The position numbers were made by a program, and so were the translations under genes. A stretch of DNA of 64,000 nucleotides from Escherichia phage vB_EcoM_TU01: sequence record MZ560701. One strand, given 5' to 3'. A model generated the notes under the pieces. The model saw only the letters and a list, made by a program, of their open reading frames with translations, was not told the DNA's origin and made no database searches. Each line of letters opens with the position of its first letter. Position 1 is the stretch's first letter. Below are positions 23,694-60,683 of this stretch, in pieces.

Positions 23694-23933
23694 ATGGCCC
23701 AAGAATTAGANNNNNNNNNNNNNNNNNNNNNNNNNNNNNNNNNNNNNNNNNNNNNNNNNNNNNNNNNNNNNTATGACATTTTAACAGATGCTATTACTGT
23801 TAGTTGTGGTGGAAANNNNNNNNNNNNNNNNNNNACTGAAAACAAATACCCAATCTATAAAGGCATCTTTGATATGGGTGTTGATATTAGNNNNNNNNNN
23901 NNNNNNNNNNNNNNNNNNNNNNNNNNNAAATAA
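23694..23933 (+). CDS. hypothetical protein, mostly N-masked
   Basis: ORF spans three N runs; only fragments readable. Confidence 0.25.
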   Translation: MAQELXXXXXXXXXXXXXXXXXXXXXYDILTDAITVSCGGXXXXXXXTENKYPIYKGIFDMGVDIXXXXXXXXXXXXXK

Positions 23934-35792: not shown

Positions 35793-35832
35793 TATAATGA
35801 CATGGACGGTAAACTAATTAAATGAGAGAAAT

Positions 35833-36468
35833 ATGAAAACTACTCCTATTACTATCGCTATTGACGCAATCATAAAACAAGCTTCTTCTTTGGCCGCTAT
35901 GGCCAAAGTAATTAGTCAAAACCCTGCTCGTTATAATGCTATTCTAGAAACTCTTCGACGCCCAGGACTTAGNAATTANGAAAGCCGAGTAATTATTACA
36001 GGTGTTGGTAAGAATGCTAATATTGCAACTAAAGCTTCTGAGACATTTGCTTCACTCGGTATCCCGAGTATGTACTTGAACACCGGGCATTATTCTCACG
36101 GTGATGCAGGATTCATTGCGCCTAATGATGTGTTGATTCATATTAGTCGTTCTGGTAAAACTGAAGAAATGATAGGCGTTGCTAAGCATCTTAAAATGAT
36201 TCGTCCGAACGTCAAACAGATTCTGTTGCATTGTAACCCAGACATTCCACAAGAAAATGAAGCCCTTTTTGATTACTCTTTCTGTACAGGCATCGCAGTA
36301 GAGGTTGATGAGAATTCTCTGGCTCCGACTATGTCCACTACATTGTTGTTAGCGCTTATCGATACTTTTGCTATCAACCTTTCGTCTGAGCGTGGATTTA
36401 CCTCTAATGACTTCCTTAAGTTCCACCCTGGTGGTGCACTAGGTGCCATGTTACGAGGCGAACAATGA
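35833..36468 (+). CDS. SIS-domain sugar-phosphate isomerase (KpsF/GutQ/KdsD-like, no CBS domains)
   Basis: VIITGVGKNANIATKASETFASLGIPSMYLNTGHYSHGDAGFIAPNDVLIHISRSGKTEEM is a canonical SIS domain. Confidence 0.8.
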   Translation: MKTTPITIAIDAIIKQASSLAAMAKVISQNPARYNAILETLRRPGLXNXESRVIITGVGKNANIATKASETFASLGIPSMYLNTGHYSHGDAGFIAPNDVLIHISRSGKTEEMIGVAKHLKMIRPNVKQILLHCNPDIPQENEALFDYSFCTGIAVEVDENSLAPTMSTTLLLALIDTFAINLSSERGFTSNDFLKFHPGGALGAMLRGEQ

Positions 36469-36608
36469 AAGCAATAACAATAGGACTTTTACTATTGATG
36501 CTTGTCATGACTATCTACTGGAGCTTAACGGCTCCAGTAATGATTCCAACACTTGTAATTGGATGGATTATGATTGGACTACAAGCAAAGTATGAATGCT
36601 TTAACTAG
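36465..36608 (+). CDS. 47-aa hydrophobic micropeptide (candidate)
   Basis: MKAITIGLLLLMLVMTIYWSLTAPVMIPTLVIGWIMIGLQ; ATGA overlap with SIS gene. Confidence 0.3.
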   Translation: MKAITIGLLLLMLVMTIYWSLTAPVMIPTLVIGWIMIGLQAKYECFN

Positions 36609-36649
36609 AATAGTGTACAATACTCCTACTTACCAATGAGGACNNCAAC

Positions 36650-38335
36650 ATGAAAAAAGCTGTTATTCTTGGTGCTGGACTGGCAACTCGTTTGTATCCA
36701 ATAACGCATCATATTCCTAAGGTGCTTGTTAACTATAAACAAGACACTATTCTGAGCAATTTGTATACAATTTATTCTGACCTTGGCGCAGATGAAATTA
36801 TTGTAGTAGTTCATTCAAAATTTGCTGAAACTGTTCGAGCTTATTGTGAGCAAGAAGGGTTCAATGTGACTATTCGTACAGTTGATGAAGCGTATGGTTC
36901 TGCTTATGCTCTTGCTAAATTACACAAAGATTTAGACGGCCATAATGTAATTGTTAACTGGTGTGATATTATTCCTGATTTTGGTTCATGGTCTTGGAAT
37001 GTTAACGCAATCTATGTTAAGGGTGATGAATGTCGATATAATTTCGACGGTGAAAATATCACTAACGTAGGTTCAACAGGTGGTAATGTTGTAGGAATTT
37101 ATCAGTTCAAAGACTGGGAATTCTATATGGGTTCTACTGATGAGGAAATTCATGAATACTGCAAAGGACGTGATTTCGTAGAATTCCTTTACGGCAGCGC
37201 ATTCAATAAATCAGAGCTTATGAATCTAATTGATTTAGGTGATATGCCTAAACTTGAAAAAGCTCATGAAGTTCGTGAACTTAATCGTAGTTTTAATGCA
37301 GTTGAAATTGGTGAAGAAACTGTAACTAAATTCGCATTAACCGAACAGGGTCGAGCTCTTCAGAAAGATGAGATTTCATGGTATCTTAAAGTGAAATCAG
37401 ATTCAGTTCCTCAGTTAGTTTCTGTTAATGAAAATAACTTTGAAATGGAACGCATTAAAGGTAAGCCGGCATTTGAATATATTAAATCCAAATCGAGTCT
37501 TGCTCGTCCACAAATTGTTGATGCAATTTTAGATGCACTGAAATTCAGCACAGACACTTATTTTGTAAGTCCTGAAACTGTTCGTCGTGATTTCACTAAA
37601 GAATTCTATACGAAAGTTATTGATCGTTGTGAAAGTATTCAACCATTGATTGATTCATTTGGTAAAATCACACATGTGAACTACACTAAGATTGGACGTC
37701 TGAAGCCAATGCTGAAACAAGCTTTAGAACACCTTATTCGTTATCATAACCGTTCTCAGGGACAGTACTCTGTTATTCATGGCGACCCGAACTTCAGTAA
37801 TACTATGATTACTGATAACGGCGAAGTCAAGTTTATCGACCCTCGTGGATATTTTGGTGAAACCAAGATTTACGGGCCAAAATTGTACGATGAAGCTAAA
37901 GTGCTTTATGCTGTTTCAGGTTATGATGAATTCAACGCTAATCCGACCTGGGGACAGTTTACTATTGACGAAACAACTTGTAATGTGACTATTAACATCA
38001 ATCCATTAATTTACAAATATGGAAAGCTGAGTTCGTTTAACGAGTATCATCATTTGGCCGTAGCAATTATCTGGATTGCATTAGGTGGTTATTTCAAGAA
38101 TAATCCACTTAAAGCGGTAGCCGCATATTATAAAGGTATGGAACTTCTGACTAAGCAATTACGTAACATGGGCCGTGTACTTCAAGACGGCTCTATTAGT
38201 TATGACGTAGCAGAACCTGTAACGGCTACTCTGATTACAAAAAATCCTGGTAAATGGGTACTAACTGATAAAGAAACTGGTGTTTCCTATCGTCCAATCG
38301 GTGGCGATATCACTCATCAATGGGAACGAATCTAA
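36650..38335 (+). CDS. bifunctional sugar-1-phosphate nucleotidyltransferase (N-term, LicC/RmlA-like) + APH/choline-kinase-fold kinase (C-term)
   Basis: N-term MKKAVILGAGLATRLYPIT...KVLV (G-x-G-T-R-L-x-P); C-term SVIHGDPNFSNTMITDNGEVKFIDPRGYFG (H-G-D-x4-N and I-D-x-R). Confidence 0.8.
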   Translation: MKKAVILGAGLATRLYPITHHIPKVLVNYKQDTILSNLYTIYSDLGADEIIVVVHSKFAETVRAYCEQEGFNVTIRTVDEAYGSAYALAKLHKDLDGHNVIVNWCDIIPDFGSWSWNVNAIYVKGDECRYNFDGENITNVGSTGGNVVGIYQFKDWEFYMGSTDEEIHEYCKGRDFVEFLYGSAFNKSELMNLIDLGDMPKLEKAHEVRELNRSFNAVEIGEETVTKFALTEQGRALQKDEISWYLKVKSDSVPQLVSVNENNFEMERIKGKPAFEYIKSKSSLARPQIVDAILDALKFSTDTYFVSPETVRRDFTKEFYTKVIDRCESIQPLIDSFGKITHVNYTKIGRLKPMLKQALEHLIRYHNRSQGQYSVIHGDPNFSNTMITDNGEVKFIDPRGYFGETKIYGPKLYDEAKVLYAVSGYDEFNANPTWGQFTIDETTCNVTININPLIYKYGKLSSFNEYHHLAVAIIWIALGGYFKNNPLKAVAAYYKGMELLTKQLRNMGRVLQDGSISYDVAEPVTATLITKNPGKWVLTDKETGVSYRPIGGDITHQWERI

Positions 38336-38721
38336 TGCACCGTGTAGAAAACATGCTTAATCTTTGTTTTGATGTCGATGATTGTATAACAGAGTGGAAT
38401 AACAATCGTGATTACGTGAACTTCAAGCCGGACGTCGAAATGGTGAATGCCATTAATGCCCTGTATGATGCAGGGCACACAATAACGCTTTACACTGCTC
38501 GCGGTATGAAGTCAGTAGGTCCTGGTCGTATAGCAATTGACATTCTCCCAAGTCTTATTCAGAACTTGGCAAACATTGGCTTGAAGTACCATAATTTGCT
38601 AACACATAAACCAGTATATGATTGGATTATCGACGACAAAGCTATGCGTCCTGACGAATTCAAAGCTCTTATGAATAAAGGCGAATTCGAAACATTTAAA
38701 TCATATAAACCGAATCTATAA
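38335..38721 (+). CDS. small HAD-superfamily phosphatase (KdsC-like size)
   Basis: LCFDVDDCIT (motif I DxDx[TV]), ITLYTARG (motif II), YDWIIDDK (motif IV); start 38335 or 38353. Confidence 0.7.
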   Translation: MHRVENMLNLCFDVDDCITEWNNNRDYVNFKPDVEMVNAINALYDAGHTITLYTARGMKSVGPGRIAIDILPSLIQNLANIGLKYHNLLTHKPVYDWIIDDKAMRPDEFKALMNKGEFETFKSYKPNL

Positions 38722-38775
38722 TAATTTAAGTAAGACCTGCAAAAACCATCGCATCAATTAACGCGAGATGCAAAA

Positions 38776-39936
38776 ATGAATACTTTTAAAATCGGAACGA
38801 ATTTTGATTTAGCTCTTCTTGATAAAATCGTAGAGCTCAATAAAACTTATCCTAATAGCTTGATAAACGAAGTATATGGCTCTACAAGAGAAATGGCTTT
38901 TGTAGCAGCCAGACCTGATTTTAGGCTTCCTGACGTTGACAAAAAGATGTTAGAAGATTACGTTAAACGTTGTAACGAATTAGGTATTTGCTTTAACTAT
39001 ACACTCAACACGATAAATCCTGGTTCAAAAAGAGAACTAGTTGAGTGGAAGAAGAAAGCTATTCAGGACTATGTTCAGTATCTTTGGTCAATAGGCGTAT
39101 GGCGTATTACTATCGCTAACCCTGTTGTTATGGAAATTGTTCGTGAAGTCAATAAAGACATTGAGATTGAAGTTTCAACAATTTTACATGTCGATGCTGT
39201 AACTCAAATCAAATACTTACATGACCAGTATAATATCAAAAAGGTCTGCTGTGGAATTCATAAGAACCGTTCAGTTTCTTTCCTGAAGCGTGCAGCAGAG
39301 TTTTGCAATAAGAACAATATAATATTTGAAGTTCTTGTAAATGAGTTCTGTTCTAATGCTGGTAAAGGGTATACAACACATTGTAGCTATCGTGACTCTT
39401 GCTATATTTTCCATAGTACTGATGTTACAGCTGATGATGCTAAATCCTTAAATGGATATCCTATGCAGCACTGTATTAAAGCTCGTGATACAGACCCATT
39501 TAACTGGTTGAGAACTCGTTTTGTTCGTCCACAAGATTTGAAACTTTATAATGATATTGGTATCACTCAATTTAAAGTTTCGGGACGTACAGGTAGCACC
39601 GACTACATTTTGAAAGTTCTTGAAGCTTATGCTTCTGAAAAGTTTGAAGGTAATTTGTTGGAATTGTGGAAGCCTTTAGAGACCATTTTCACTCTTGAAA
39701 ATGAGACCGAGTTTTCACATACGGTAAATATTGAAACCTCTTTGTTAGACGGCTTTTTAGAAAAAAGGTGGTTCAGACATCCGGATTTCGATTGTGCTAA
39801 TGAAATCTGCGGGACGACGTGTACATATTGTGAAAGATATTATAAACGTCAGTTATCTAAAAATGGGTTATCAGAAAATTCTATATCTATTATTGATATA
39901 ACTAACTCTGACGACGCTTTGAGGTACCCAGAATGA
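38776..39936 (+). CDS. Cys-rich enzyme of unknown function (possible U32-like TIM barrel; C-terminal CGTTCTYC Cx3Cx2C cluster)
   Basis: 386 aa; FEVLVNEFCSNAGKGYTTHCSYRDSC and CANEICGTTCTYC; family assignment tentative. Confidence 0.5.
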   Translation: MNTFKIGTNFDLALLDKIVELNKTYPNSLINEVYGSTREMAFVAARPDFRLPDVDKKMLEDYVKRCNELGICFNYTLNTINPGSKRELVEWKKKAIQDYVQYLWSIGVWRITIANPVVMEIVREVNKDIEIEVSTILHVDAVTQIKYLHDQYNIKKVCCGIHKNRSVSFLKRAAEFCNKNNIIFEVLVNEFCSNAGKGYTTHCSYRDSCYIFHSTDVTADDAKSLNGYPMQHCIKARDTDPFNWLRTRFVRPQDLKLYNDIGITQFKVSGRTGSTDYILKVLEAYASEKFEGNLLELWKPLETIFTLENETEFSHTVNIETSLLDGFLEKRWFRHPDFDCANEICGTTCTYCERYYKRQLSKNGLSENSISIIDITNSDDALRYPE

Positions 39937-40109
39937 TTTCTAGAAAAACTTTTAACCACCAACTTAATGAAGAGATTTTGACTATAAAAATTAACAGCAA
40001 CGAACAAATTCTTAAAAAGGCCCTTATGGGCCTGTTTGAAACTAAAGCGGCTAAAGCGATTAAAGAAACCTGTTCAACTAGAATACTATGCCGACGCATT
40101 CCTTCATAG
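39933..40109 (+). CDS. small hypothetical protein (58 aa)
   Basis: ATGA overlap. Confidence 0.3.
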   Translation: MISRKTFNHQLNEEILTIKINSNEQILKKALMGLFETKAAKAIKETCSTRILCRRIPS

Positions 40110-40172
40110 TGTCCTTGGAAGTATTGATGCCGAAGCTCTACGTTATATCAACATCGCTAAGAAATTCAAATA

Positions 40173-40196
40173 AGCTTTATGAATTGAGTATATAAT
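40173..40196 (+). promoter_or_regulatory. middle-promoter-like element (MotA-box-like AGCTTTA, TATAAT 11 nt downstream) for gene 42
   Basis: AGCTTTA 40173-40179, TATAAT 40191-40196. Confidence 0.45.
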
Positions 40197-40215
40197 AAAC
40201 TGTATTGAGGTAAAC

Positions 40216-40932
40216 ATGGGAAAACATAACACAATGAAATATATTAAAGCCGCAGATTTTCAATCCGCATTTAAAGCTGTCAATCGTGAAATTTTAGAAA
40301 ACCCAGAATTCGTAACTGATTCTCGTATTGGACGTTGTAATGAAATTGGGTCTATGACAGTAGTTGTTGACACTCCATCATCATTCAAAATGACCGACCC
40401 ACGTATTAACCGCATCTCTTATGAATATGCCGAAGATTTCTGGAAATTTATGATTTCTGGCGGNACTGANGCAGAAGAAGCATTTAAGGCATATCCTAAT
40501 GTCGCTAAATTTATTTCTAAACCAAAATCAGACGCTTTGCCTGCGAACTTCAACACTTTCTATGGTCCTCGCATTGCGGCCCAATTACCAGCTCTTCTAA
40601 AAGAACTTAAAGAGAAGCCTAACTCTCGAAGAGTTGTGTTCCAAATTCTTGAAAGTTCTGATCAGGCTTTGCTTGATTCGGACGAAACGCTTGAATATCC
40701 ATGTACTGACTCAGTGACTTATTATATTCGTGATGGTAAGCTTTATACCCACTGTCATATGCGTTCCCAGAACTGTGCTGTTGTTATGCAGTTGGATTTT
40801 TATCTCCAAGGAAAATTACTTCATTATATCGCTAAAGAATGCGGTGTAGAAGTTGGTGATTATACTCATACCATGGTAAGTGCCCATGTGTTTGAACGTG
40901 ATTTTGATTATGTTAAAGGATTCCTTGACTAA
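40216..40932 (+). CDS. 42: dCMP hydroxymethylase (thymidylate-synthase fold)
   Basis: 238 aa; CTDSVTYYIRDGKLYTHCHMRSQNCAVVMQLDF parallels T4 gp42 catalytic-Cys region; between 43 and uvsX. Confidence 0.85.
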   Translation: MGKHNTMKYIKAADFQSAFKAVNREILENPEFVTDSRIGRCNEIGSMTVVVDTPSSFKMTDPRINRISYEYAEDFWKFMISGXTXAEEAFKAYPNVAKFISKPKSDALPANFNTFYGPRIAAQLPALLKELKEKPNSRRVVFQILESSDQALLDSDETLEYPCTDSVTYYIRDGKLYTHCHMRSQNCAVVMQLDFYLQGKLLHYIAKECGVEVGDYTHTMVSAHVFERDFDYVKGFLD

Positions 40933-41831
40933 TGGCTATTTTCCGCGTACCTATCTTGAGTATGCGGTCTTATGAAACCGGACAGTATGCTATCCTTAAG
41001 GATGGCAACTTCCAACTTCATTTGCACCGTGCTAATCCGGGTGATGTGATTACATATCCACGTAATGCATCTGATATTAAAGAATGTGAACGTCTTTTCC
41101 CAGAATTTAAGTTTGTTCCATTATGGTATAAAGATAACGCGTATAACACTCGTAAATATTTCTGGTCTGAAAATGAATTTGTGGTTGATTCATTAATTGC
41201 TTATTATGATTGTGATTTTCTAATCACAGATATCACTGGATATGACGGAGCTTTTGATGTAGAATTCAATTTCAATATCACTGCAGACCCTAATAAACCA
41301 CGTTTTTATATTGACGAATTCTTAAAAACCGACATGTTGTCGGTTAATCGTTCACTTCAAACTACTGTGTTGAATGAACGTCAAAAAGAAGTGCTGGTTA
41401 ACGCTGGTGCAGATGGTAATAAGATTATCGTAACCCAGAAAGTTATACGTCCTTCCATCATGCAGCGTCTTGTAGGTGATTTGGCTCCTATTCATCTAGA
41501 TGGTATTTTTCATCCATTTCGAATTAGTGACCCGTGCTATCGTTTTGAACAAGTGGTTGAATGTGCAATTCAATTAGGTCAACCGCTTTATGTAACCGAT
41601 CCAAATAATAGTTTCGATAGAAATAAGTATCCTGAAGAAGCGCTGATTCGAATTTTTAAACCAACTAAAACTGAGTACTATCAAATTCTTAAAGGACGGC
41701 CGAAGATTCAATATTTCGAAAATCCTGAAGAAGTATTCCATCCAGGTCTTGGCGAGTTCATCTACTTTAATGCTTTAATTTCTTCACCGTATAATATACC
41801 TAAATACGAAGATGTCGTAATCGAGGAATAA
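40932..41831 (+). CDS. hypothetical protein at the T4 beta-glucosyltransferase locus (no resemblance to T4 beta-gt)
   Basis: 299 aa; TAATG overlap with gene 42; no motif I could assign. Confidence 0.5.
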   Translation: MAIFRVPILSMRSYETGQYAILKDGNFQLHLHRANPGDVITYPRNASDIKECERLFPEFKFVPLWYKDNAYNTRKYFWSENEFVVDSLIAYYDCDFLITDITGYDGAFDVEFNFNITADPNKPRFYIDEFLKTDMLSVNRSLQTTVLNERQKEVLVNAGADGNKIIVTQKVIRPSIMQRLVGDLAPIHLDGIFHPFRISDPCYRFEQVVECAIQLGQPLYVTDPNNSFDRNKYPEEALIRIFKPTKTEYYQILKGRPKIQYFENPEEVFHPGLGEFIYFNALISSPYNIPKYEDVVIEE

Positions 41832-41832
41832 A

Positions 41833-42381
41833 ATGGCTAAAATTATTTTAGTAGATGGCCCGGATAATGCTGGTAAAACAACTTTCATTAATGATATAAT
41901 GGAAATTAGTGAAAGATATGTAAAGATTGATTTCCCTAAACGAACAGTTGATGGACGTTTCGATGTTAAGTCTCGAAATGAAGTTGGCTGTTTCGAAACG
42001 ATGTTGAATTATTTAGACCCTACTAAGATTTATCTGTTAGACCGTGGATATATTAGTAACTGGGTTTATGGACGTATTCGACAAGATGCGGACTCGGTTC
42101 TTGACGTTTATGAACAGGATTATGTTCGTCTTTGCCAAAACCATGATGTGTTCACAATTATTTTAACACGTAACGAAATGACTGAAAGTTTTGAAGACGA
42201 CCTTATTACTTTGTCTTCATTCGGTTTTAATACAGTCATTTCACATTTTGAAGAGTTTGCAATTCATAACAAAATCCAAACGTATCAATTACTTAATCAT
42301 GATGGTGCTAACAAAGTTATAGGATTTAATGCAAGCGAACGTAATTATTTGATTACAGAAATTATCAAATGGGCTCGTTAA
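41833..42381 (+). CDS. P-loop nucleoside/nucleotide-kinase-like protein
   Basis: MAKIILVDGPDNAGKTTFI (Walker A), LLDRGYISNWVYG (DR motif typical of dNK/dNMP kinases). Confidence 0.55.
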   Translation: MAKIILVDGPDNAGKTTFINDIMEISERYVKIDFPKRTVDGRFDVKSRNEVGCFETMLNYLDPTKIYLLDRGYISNWVYGRIRQDADSVLDVYEQDYVRLCQNHDVFTIILTRNEMTESFEDDLITLSSFGFNTVISHFEEFAIHNKIQTYQLLNHDGANKVIGFNASERNYLITEIIKWAR

Positions 42382-42402
42382 GAGCCTGTTTAAAGTTTTT
42401 AA

Positions 42403-60260: not shown

Positions 60261-60683
60261 ATGGCTTTTAAAGGTTTTGAAGTTGGTAAGAAATATCGTA
60301 TTATCAAAGGACAGGAAGATAATTTCTTGAGACTTCTTAATACGACTGGTAAACGTCTTAATACTAATCTGCATACTNCTTTATTGTCNAAAGATTTTAT
60401 TGTAGAAGAGATGATTGGTTACGGCGTTTCGATTATTGCCGNNNNNNNNNNNNNNNNNNNNNNNNNNNTCATTAGTATGCAAGGTGATATTCTGCTTTAT
60501 GGTGCAGAATTTAAATTCTTTGAAGAAGTTCCGGAACCAGATACAGCTGTCGATTTCAAAAAAGGCTCTGTAGAATTTGTTGATGGTTCGGTGATCGTAT
60601 CAGGCGATGTGGTCATTACAGTTAAAAGTGAACAAGGGCGTTTGGCTGCAATTGATGCACTTCAGAAAATTAAATTTAAATAA
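60261..60683 (+). CDS. hypothetical protein (contains N-masked block)
   Basis: ORF track. Confidence 0.45.
   Translation: MAFKGFEVGKKYRIIKGQEDNFLRLLNTTGKRLNTNLHTXLLXKDFIVEEMIGYGVSIIAXXXXXXXXXXISMQGDILLYGAEFKFFEEVPEPDTAVDFKKGSVEFVDGSVIVSGDVVITVKSEQGRLAAIDALQKIKFK

Follow-up and report, generated by a model that had tools for sequence, protein, structure and literature searches.

The genome of Escherichia phage vB_EcoM_TU01 (sequence record MZ560701) was analysed over a stretch of 64,000 nucleotides, referred to here as the window, with a focus on a single cysteine-rich gene on the plus strand (positions 38776-39936). The open reading frame (ORF) is intact from its ATG to the stop codon and encodes 386 amino acids (aa), and the opposite strand is full of stop codons. 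The window represents an RB69-type T4-like phage (Mosigvirus), and the ORF is the orthologue of RB69 gp50 (RB69p050, NP_861740.1), which carries the database label “peptidase”. The surrounding region (35800-42400) shares 97.8-98.4% identity with RB69, NHEP36, JS09, and about 150 further genomes. Its genes are all encoded on the plus strand in the order gp43 (DNA polymerase), gp55, gp52:53, gp51, gp50, gp49, gp48, gp46:47, gp45, and uvsX (Table 1). A first-pass annotation of the window had placed gp50 within the sugar module. This holds for its position, with sugar-nucleotide genes on one side and base-modification genes on the other, but by association gp50 belongs with the base-hydroxylation step.

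Family membership and conserved cysteines of gp50

There is good evidence for a membership of gp50 in the U32 family. The protein matches Pfam family PF01136 (Peptidase_U32) with 42.2 bits (gathering cut-off 22.4; E 7.3e-11) over residues 94-286, and the same family is precomputed for nearly all of the 120 homologues listed; a Pfam scan at E <=0.01 returned no family besides Peptidase_U32. The TIM-barrel fold of the gp50 model resembles a solved U32 structure (PDB 5d88), which was reached via fold comparison only; a sequence search of the PDB with gp50 gave no match at E up to 1. The loose resemblance to U32-family TIM-barrel proteins noted in the first-pass annotation is borne out by both profile and fold. 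The other two identities it had suggested for profile searches, radical SAM and ThiC-like, found no support. There is no Radical_SAM Pfam match at E <=0.01, and the Cx3Cx2C at residues 345-352 lies after the barrel; the invariant C340 ahead of it suggests a fully ligated site, unlike that of radical SAM enzymes. A ThiC-like identity is supported neither by the Pfam scan nor by the fold comparison.

The best match of the family profile is RlhA (hhalign E 3e-6; gp50 residues 53-285); the matches to TrhP (E 1e-3) and UbiU (E 6e-3) cover only the N-terminal part of the barrel. The sole NCBIfam match of gp50 is UbiU, with 18.5 bits versus a cut-off of 440, and an exhaustive profile search among 1.84 billion cluster representatives recovered just 1,701 matches at E <=1e-3, which argues for a separate U32 subfamily. 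This indicates that gp50 falls into a compact and distinct U32 clade and is an orthologue of none of the named enzymes (RlhA, TrhP, UbiU, or UbiV).

With 13 cysteines (3.4%), gp50 has the top cysteine fraction among the 27 ORFs of the window with at least 200 aa (median 1.1%). Nine of these residues (C158, C192, C203, C209, C233, C340, C345, C349, and C352) are invariant in all 121 sequences of the conservation set (49-100% identity), C177 is kept in 118 of them, and C66, C72, and C159 are variable. The sequence CGTTCTYC, which the first-pass annotation had singled out as a C-terminal cluster, occupies residues 345-352 and forms a Cx4Cx3Cx2C motif together with C340. Its description of a cysteine-rich 386-aa protein with additional conserved cysteines is therefore accurate: neither are the cysteines poorly conserved, nor does the protein belong to an unrelated family. 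The four C-terminal cysteines, together with C192, C203, and C233, are retained even in cellular relatives with only 25-30% identity, which have His in place of C209. The C-terminal cluster has no aligned counterpart in UbiU, UbiV, or TrhP.

In a MAFFT alignment with UbiU, UbiV, TrhP, and RlhA of E. coli, E185 of gp50 corresponds to E162 of TrhP and E161 of RlhA, C192 to C170 and C169, and C209 to C177 and C176, respectively, which are the residues reported to be essential in the two enzymes (PMC6599085). C233 aligns with the third canonical ligand (TrhP C193, RlhA C192). E185 is kept in 73 of 86 family sequences, and there is no variation at C192 and C209 among sequences above 38% identity. 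By alignment, gp50 keeps the Glu/Cys/Cys motif essential for the activity of RlhA and TrhP, with ambiguity in the assignment of one cysteine: C203 sits in an insertion of ~10 residues that is specific to the gp50 subfamily, and the partner of the first cysteine (C169) in hhalign is C203 instead of C192. The canonical fourth U32 cysteine (CxxxC; UbiU site C169, C176, C193, C232) is absent from gp50, and C203 is proposed to substitute for the missing fourth ligand of a [4Fe-4S] cluster. Taken by its cysteine pattern, gp50 is probably an Fe-S protein.

All characterised U32 enzymes are tied to O2-independent, prephenate-dependent hydroxylation. The formation of 5-hydroxycytidine at C2501 of 23S rRNA requires RlhA, and that of 5-hydroxyuridine at position 34 of tRNA requires TrhP; both enzymes depend on prephenate, work without O2, and act at C5 of C and U, with the O2-dependent TrhO as a backup for TrhP (PMC6599085). 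UbiU and UbiV are [4Fe-4S] proteins that stand in for the flavin monooxygenases UbiI, UbiH, and UbiF under anoxia, and isotope labelling has identified prephenate as their oxygen donor (PMC10990095). A role of gp50 as a collagenase-like U32 peptidase, which is implied by the family name and by annotations such as “peptidase” and “collagenase-like protease”, is hardly credible, because characterised members of the family are linked to hydroxylation and not to proteolysis, and because there is no proteolytic rationale for the invariant cysteine clusters, the genomic linkage to chorismate mutase (see below), and the context of nucleotide metabolism.

The cytosine in the DNA of RB69 and of Acinetobacter phage DLP3 is replaced by mono- and poly-arabinosylated 5-hydroxycytosine (5hoC); RB69, for which only 5hoC derivatives have been reported, replaces its cytosine completely and encodes a dCTPase (PMC13326640). 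The 5-hydroxy-dCMP of RB69 is made by the ThyA homologue gp48 with an oxygen atom from O2 and a loosely bound flavin that is needed in reduced form; gp48 alone yields the deoxynucleoside (5hodC) in E. coli, i.e., gp50 is not needed aerobically (PMC13326640). The same study assigned the isomerase, the kinase/pyrophosphorylase, the phosphatase, and the glycosyltransferases of RB69, and its Table 1 lists gp50 as “Sugar or heterocycle reductase”, based on the fold match to 5d88. It nowhere mentions U32, prephenate, or chorismate mutase; its discussion cites RlhA and TrhP/TrhO as unrelated routes of pyrimidine hydroxylation and does not remark that gp50 shares their family. A Tevenvirinae paper from 2021 merely includes the gene among “homologs among peptidases”, and it is not mentioned in the RB69 paper from 2018 or in the papers on Thanatos and the Durham collection. 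A literature search, which was incomplete for recent work, found no paper that links gp50, U32, or prephenate to the 5hoC of phages. In the literature covered, the gene is known and annotated, its role is unexplained, and the proposal of an O2-independent hydroxylase is not found.

Because the characterised members of the U32 family are linked to O2-independent hydroxylation, two of them act at the C5 of pyrimidines, RB69 needs 5hoC, and gp48 needs O2, gp50 is proposed to provide the anaerobic route. On balance, the evidence favours a function of gp50 as an O2-independent, prephenate-dependent U32 hydroxylase acting on C5 of a deoxycytidine nucleotide. The exact substrate is probably dCMP, which is put forward with lower confidence than the general function. 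A different target would be expected if gp50 were an RNA hydroxylase in the manner of RlhA and TrhP, modifying rRNA or tRNA of the host or the phage to tune translation. RlhA is its closest E. coli paralogue, and T4-like phages carry genes for tRNAs and for further factors with an effect on translation; nevertheless, such a role is very improbable, as the gene is embedded in DNA-modification or deoxynucleotide modules in more than 30 lineages and the host already encodes both RlhA and TrhP. Moreover, gp50 lacks the extra C-terminal regions of RlhA (653 aa) and TrhP (453 aa), to which its own four-cysteine tail looks unrelated.

Gene neighbourhoods and host distribution

The strongest functional clue, which had gone unmentioned in the first-pass annotation, is a chorismate mutase (CM) adjacent to U32 in related phages. 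Phages Entb_45 (Kanagawavirus) and LC53 (Winklervirus) encode a CM of the CM_2 family between U32 and ThyA (Pfam CM_2, 40.9 and 44.6 bits vs a cut-off of 27). Homologs of this T4-like CM were detected by tblastn in 51 of 50,697 phage records, and all 51 are T4-like phages that possess U32 and carry the CM in the slot between U32 and ThyA. The linkage extends to a broader set of 78 neighbourhoods from viral contigs, genome contigs, and metagenomes, where the CM profile identified a CM domain beside U32 in 28 loci, of which 13 are T4-like (out of 15 such loci) and 15 are not. The non-T4 forms are either a CM of 151 aa immediately after U32 (53.7 bits) or a fusion of DAHP synthase with CM_2 (Pfam 88.7 and 71.8 bits). 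Unrelated phages also show the adjacency of U32 and CM, with three distinct gene architectures. The phage CMs retain five or six of the eight active-site residues of EcCM (R11, R28, K39, D48, R51, E52, S84, and Q88), with R11, R28, K39, S84, and Q88 being kept, which makes their catalysis plausible.

One of the non-T4 loci encodes a stand-alone phage DAHP synthase of 248 aa that adjoins U32 (L012, 9145-9891), and another the DAHP synthase fused to CM_2 (L068, 8411-9433). It is unusual for phages to encode the first step of the shikimate pathway. The identity of the stand-alone form is ambiguous, because PF00793 also includes KDO8P synthase, an enzyme that uses arabinose 5-phosphate.

The neighbourhoods outside the T4-like phages were compared by clustering the same-strand ORFs within 7 kb of U32, with U32 sequences collapsed at 70% identity. 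The count covers 30 non-T4 lineages whose U32 is at least 38% identical to gp50. A glycosyltransferase of the gp46:47 type is nearby in 18 of them, often directly adjacent (phrog_3891, the family of the glycosyltransferase in the window). An NTP-transferase/kinase is present in 9 of the 30, whereas SIS isomerase, Tmk-like kinase, and CM are each present in 7. A ThyA-family gene within ~10 kb on either strand was found in only one lineage (L059), and its product looks like a canonical ThyA. Direct BLAST with the proteins of the window recovered the NTP-transferase/kinase in 20 non-T4 loci, the glycosyltransferase in 19, the SIS isomerase in 12, and ThyA in one. The presence of a glycosyltransferase beside U32 without ThyA, in a setting of deoxynucleotide metabolism, suggests that U32 replaces the hydroxylase of the ThyA type.

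These neighbourhoods bear also on the possibility that gp50 is a redox helper of gp48, e.g., an Fe-S flavin reductase that provides reduced FMN, or a “sugar or heterocycle reductase”. Such a helper would fit the loosely bound flavin of gp48, which must be supplied in reduced form (PMC13326640), the two metal centres that are probable in gp50, and the published label of a reductase, which is based on fold (PMC13326640). It is nonetheless improbable: gp48 functions in E. coli without gp50 (PMC13326640), homologues of gp48 occur without U32 in phages of Acinetobacter and Rhizobium and in JS98-type phages, and 29 of the 30 non-T4 lineages have U32 without a nearby ThyA homologue. A redox helper would also leave the linkage to CM and DAHP synthase unexplained, and no Pfam family other than Peptidase_U32 matches gp50 at E <=0.01.

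In eight loci, the glycosyltransferase is the sole gene of the module found near U32. This speaks against an action of gp50 on the sugar or its nucleotide carrier, such as an oxidation or reduction of arabinose or UDP-arabinose, which has little probability also because DLP3 makes the same kind of modification without gp50. The position of the gene between the phosphatase and the base-modification genes would agree with a sugar enzyme, as would the TIM barrel, a fold common to many sugar-phosphate enzymes. The first-pass annotation had considered an additional step on either the sugar or the base. The base is probably correct, and there is no link of gp50 to the chemistry of the sugar, the arabinosyl-5hoC of DLP3 being of the same kind as that of RB69; the step is probably not an additional one but a second, O2-independent way to the same base hydroxylation. 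Its other suggestion, that gp50 is the transferase itself, fails because the glycosyltransferases are gp46:47 and gp3 (PMC13326640).

The main alternative to a hydroxylase of dCMP is a prephenate-dependent U32 hydroxylase with a different substrate or timing. Such an enzyme could act after replication on cytosine in DNA, use dUMP or dCTP, or hydroxylate a second position. Polynucleotides are the substrates of RlhA and TrhP (PMC6599085), and in locus L014 the gene after U32 encodes a TET-associated glycosyltransferase (33.9 vs 27.5 bits), a family that works with hydroxylases acting at the DNA level; genes for a member of the dUTPase/dCTP-deaminase family (Pfam dUTPase and DCD) and a UDP-galactopyranose mutase are located nearby. 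Other U32 genes of the gp50 family adjoin genes for dCMP deaminase, MazG/dUTPase, thymidylate kinase, deoxynucleoside kinase, NT5C, and nucleoside deoxyribosyltransferase. The dCMP deaminase beside U32 in L004 and L013 could point to dUMP, whereas the Tmk-like kinase, deoxynucleoside kinase, NT5C, and deaminase neighbours suggest work at the level of the monomer. Since the complete replacement of cytosine and the dCTPase of RB69 call for a supply before replication, and only 5hoC derivatives have been reported in its DNA (PMC13326640), a different substrate is unlikely, albeit the least unlikely of the alternatives considered here.

On two megaphage-like contigs (L004, 9447-11086, on a contig of 466 kb; L013, 7504-9083), a dCMP deaminase gene is located directly upstream of U32, overlapping its start in L004, and the vicinity encodes the alpha subunit of PolIII, UDG, thymidylate kinase, MazG/dUTPase, and a radical SAM-SPASM protein. 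The gene content may indicate a modification of the 5-hydroxyuracil type or a deaminated product. A second conserved setting is found in metagenome-assembled genomes (MAGs) of anaerobes (L005, 7135-17428; likewise L006, L017, L023-L027, and L083), where U32 is accompanied by GP88 (PF17338), a kinase/methyltransferase fusion, NT5C, a PnuC-like transporter, a deoxynucleoside kinase, a radical SAM-SPASM protein, a second, faint U32-like protein, and a nucleoside 2-deoxyribosyltransferase. By its composition, this looks like a module for nucleoside modification or salvage. A protein of ~200 aa (c4; L079, 16570-17172) recurs in 19 non-T4 loci, sometimes twice, and is encoded directly upstream of U32 in L066, L075, L081, and L088 (657-715 nt before the start of U32). 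Neither c4 nor several other unassigned neighbours have a Pfam or PHROG match; c4 could work together with U32 or fill the role of the HAD phosphatase, which is missing, and an unrecognised alternative hydroxylase may be present among the unmatched neighbours in non-T4 loci.

The distribution of U32 among phages differs from that of gp48. A total of 373 phage records contain a homologue of gp48; 57 of these are Acinetobacter phages and 20 are Rhizobium phages, and phages of Agrobacterium and Pseudomonas are also represented. U32 is present in 221 records, and every host genus named belongs to Enterobacterales or is Shewanella, i.e., all are facultative anaerobes. U32 is absent from the phages of Acinetobacter and Rhizobium that possess the same modification cluster; in Maestro, which has no U32, ThyA directly follows the phosphatase gene. 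Outside the phages, a pattern scan of one genome per species yielded 27 cellular loci, all from anaerobic lineages or from gut or sediment MAGs (Clostridia, Lachnospiraceae, Oscillospiraceae, Romboutsia, Bacteroidales, Phocaeicola, Ruminiclostridium, Cellulosilyticum, Desulfobacteraceae, and others). The contrast between aerobic and anaerobic hosts is suggestive of an O2-independent role. The distribution also upholds the earlier claim that gp50 is dispensable for the route via isomerase, kinase, phosphatase, and transferase, because Acinetobacter phages (Maestro and, in the literature, DLP3) and JS98 manage without it. The cluster of JS98 (Dhakavirus; L010, 3476-8589) is minimal, consisting of NTP-transferase/kinase, phosphatase, kinase, ThyA homologue, and glycosyltransferase, and the imm gene sits at the position of the isomerase in RB69.

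The remaining genes of the cluster in the window are listed in Table 1. Both gp52:53 (561 aa) and gp46:47 (299 aa) are single uninterrupted ORFs, whereas the RB69 reference splits both (ORF052/053 and ORF046/047), which agrees with the published statement that the splits in RB69 are sequencing errors. The window contains 322 N, most of them scattered singles, with runs at 23711-23769, 23816-23834, 23891-23925, and 60442-60468; two single N are located within gp48 (40464 and 40470). This suggests a consensus or low-coverage assembly and calls for caution with single-base differences, including frameshifts. The start of gp49 overlaps the stop codon of gp50 (ATGA). Relative to RB69, the gp49 equivalent has one extra A near 40066-40069, in the run AAAGAAACC, resulting in ORFs of 58 and 45 aa. 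The same two-piece gp49 is present in JS09, SSE1, and pEK20 (tblastn), and the split may represent a polymorphism of the lineage or a recurrent sequencing error in the homopolymer. Homologs of gp49 (phrog_8601) were found in 162 phage records. A degenerate CM can be dismissed, since gp49 has no match in Pfam or NCBIfam and only a BLASTP E of 6.9 against the CM of Entb_45, and since phages of Yersinia and Pectobacterium and phage 92A1 carry both gp49 and CM; judging by these comparisons, gp49 is a separate small gene. The terminator-like hairpin after gp45 is possibly the end of the transcription unit of the modification genes. A promoter scan of the cluster found no excess of sites (22 vs 25.7 ± 5.1 in shuffled sequence).

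Table 1. Features of the gp50 region in the window (coordinates refer to the 64,000-nucleotide stretch).
Feature	Position	Strand	Evidence
gp55 orthologue, SIS-domain arabinose-5-phosphate isomerase	35833..36468	+	Pfam SIS, phrog_5670; PMC13326640
gp52:53 orthologue, bifunctional NTP-transferase/kinase, AfhE-like	36650..38335	+	Pfam NTP_transferase, weak kinase matches; PMC13326640
gp51 orthologue, HAD-type phosphatase, AfhF-like	38320..38721	+	phrog_1238; PMC13326640
gp50 orthologue, U32 family, 386 aa, proposed O2-independent, prephenate-dependent pyrimidine C5 hydroxylase	38776..39936	+	
U32 motif codons E185 to C233 (E185, C192, C203, C209, C233), presumed [4Fe-4S]/active-site segment	39328..39474	+	MAFFT alignment
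C-terminal Cx4Cx3Cx2C codons (C340, C345, C349, C352), presumed second metal site, Fe-S or Zn	39793..39831	+	Conservation
gp49 equivalent, phrog_8601, small gene, two ORFs (39933-40109 and 40036-40173)	39933..40173	+	DNA alignment to RB69
gp48 orthologue, ThyA-family flavin-/O2-dependent 5-hydroxy-dCMP synthase, aerobic route	40216..40932	+	Pfam Thymidylat_synt; 98% identity to RB69 gp48; PMC13326640
gp46:47 orthologue, DNA arabinosyltransferase 1	40932..41831	+	phrog_3891; role predicted in PMC13326640
gp45 orthologue, thymidylate-kinase-like nucleotide kinase	41833..42381	+	phrog_761; PMC13326640 Table 1
Terminator-like hairpin after gp45, 10-bp stem followed by T-run	42367..42391	+	Consensus scan only, weak

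A proposed oxygen-independent route to 5-hydroxycytosine

Family membership, conservation of motif and cysteines, gene neighbourhoods, and host distribution were computed here, whereas the activity, the substrate, the use of prephenate, the independence of O2, and the metal content of gp50 are inferred. In the proposed reaction, gp50 would convert dCMP to 5-hydroxy-dCMP without O2. Prephenate would donate the oxygen atom and end up as phenylpyruvate and CO2, and the resulting 5-hydroxycytosine would be arabinosylated by the glycosyltransferases of the phage. The scheme proposed for U32 enzymes comprises a two-electron oxidation of the ring and a subsequent delivery of hydroxide, coupled to the decarboxylation of prephenate to phenylpyruvate (PMC10990095). 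In gp50, C192, C203, C209, and C233 would hold the canonical U32 [4Fe-4S] cluster, and the C-terminal Cx4Cx3Cx2C would form a second metal centre that passes on the two electrons taken from the base. The single chain of gp50 would then do what UbiU and UbiV do as a pair.

This anaerobic route would run in parallel to the O2- and flavin-dependent route via the ThyA-type gp48. T4-like phages offer a precedent for such pairs of aerobic and anaerobic enzymes in NrdAB and NrdDG. The demand for prephenate would be one molecule per cytosine, which by a rough estimate amounts to ~6e4 cytosines per genome of 168 kb at 37% GC, multiplied by the burst size. A demand of this kind would explain the presence of CM and DAHP synthase genes in phages, as the phage CM or the DAHP-synthase-CM fusion would raise the supply of prephenate. 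The Mosigviruses, which have no CM gene, would depend on PheA and TyrA of the host.

Several observations weigh against an O2-independent hydroxylase. Hydroxylation in vitro had not been demonstrated for any U32 protein by the time of PMC10990095, so that the chemistry of the family rests on genetics and isotope labelling. Within gp50, the identity of the first cluster ligand (C192 or C203) is uncertain because the alignments disagree. The CMs of the T4-like phages lack ~10 residues around D48-E52 of EcCM and may not be catalytic, and the window and all other Mosigviruses are without a CM gene, the slot being occupied by gp49, which is frameshifted in the window. JS98-type phages of E. coli carry the ThyA cluster without U32, CM, or isomerase, which implies that a phage of a facultative anaerobe can do without U32. 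The pattern of aerobic and anaerobic hosts is confounded by phylogeny, and a ThyA gene could be located more than 10 kb away from U32 in the non-T4 phages.

The O2-independent hydroxylation of a deoxycytidine nucleotide by gp50 can be extended to a more general hypothesis, which we consider about evenly poised. According to this hypothesis, gp50 would be the founder of a U32 subfamily carried by phages, which would use up one prephenate per modified base to hydroxylate DNA precursors in the absence of O2; CM and the DAHP-synthase-CM fusion would be auxiliary metabolic genes that redirect the shikimate pathway; and U32, not ThyA, would be the sole entry to glycosylated hydroxypyrimidine DNA in the phages of anaerobes, gut jumbo phages included. 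If true, gut coliphages with an O2-requiring cytosine hydroxylase could still replicate fully modified DNA in the absence of oxygen, and O2-dependent phenotypes would be predicted to distinguish Mosigviruses (with U32) from Dhakaviruses (without U32). This would have a bearing on phage therapy and on the evasion or triggering of modification-dependent defences. It would also extend the prephenate chemistry of U32 enzymes from RNA and quinones to DNA precursors and provide a reason for the genes of the chorismate pathway in phages. A single-chain enzyme acting on the small, soluble dCMP might permit the first in vitro assay of a U32 hydroxylase, in a system far easier to handle than ribosomes, tRNA, or membrane-bound quinone intermediates. 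The gp50 family also marks many uncultured phages of anaerobic habitats, which probably have glycosylated hydroxypyrimidine DNA and would be missed by screens based on ThyA.

Comparison with known systems

The closest counterpart of gp50 among characterised enzymes is RlhA (YdcP) of E. coli, which acts on C2501 of 23S rRNA. RlhA is its best match in this organism and shares the Glu/Cys/Cys motif and, according to the function proposed here, a prephenate- and Fe-S-dependent hydroxylation of cytosine at C5. However, RlhA has 653 aa, binds to the 50S subunit, and modifies a single RNA residue, whereas gp50 has 386 aa and is encoded in a DNA-modification cluster. Moreover, gp50 differs from RlhA by the insertion with C203, the absence of the canonical CxxxC fourth ligand, and a C-terminal Cx4Cx3Cx2C of its own, and the two proteins align only in the barrel (residues 53-285).

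The proposed pair of gp50 and gp48 resembles TrhP and TrhO, which are also non-homologous and form the same C5-hydroxypyrimidine, one as a prephenate-dependent U32 protein without O2 and the other in an O2-dependent manner (PMC6599085). By contrast, the substrate of TrhP and TrhO is a tRNA uridine, and the O2-dependent partner is a member of the rhodanese family instead of a flavin-dependent ThyA homologue. UbiU and UbiV provide another parallel, because these U32 Fe-S proteins replace flavin- and O2-dependent hydroxylases under anoxia, as is proposed for gp50. Each of their functional units has two [4Fe-4S] clusters, for which the two cysteine clusters of gp50 could be the equivalents. Unlike the single chain of gp50, however, UbiU-UbiV is a heterodimer that acts on the aromatic ring of a lipid and involves the accessory protein UbiT.

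The ThyA-type enzymes (RB69 gp48, DLP3 gp80, and the homologue of HY126) share with gp50 the proposed product (5hodCMP), the downstream kinase, polymerase, and arabinosyltransferases, and the same place in the gene order, beside a glycosyltransferase. They differ in their unrelated fold, their flavin cofactor, the use of O2 as oxygen source, and an activity that has been demonstrated experimentally, whereas that of gp50 is proposed. The structural relative Mk0906 of Methanopyrus kandleri (PDB 5d88) is a U32 protein of 247 residues with 14% identity to gp50 and no assigned function. It has nothing that corresponds to the C-terminal ~100 residues of gp50 with their cluster of four cysteines.

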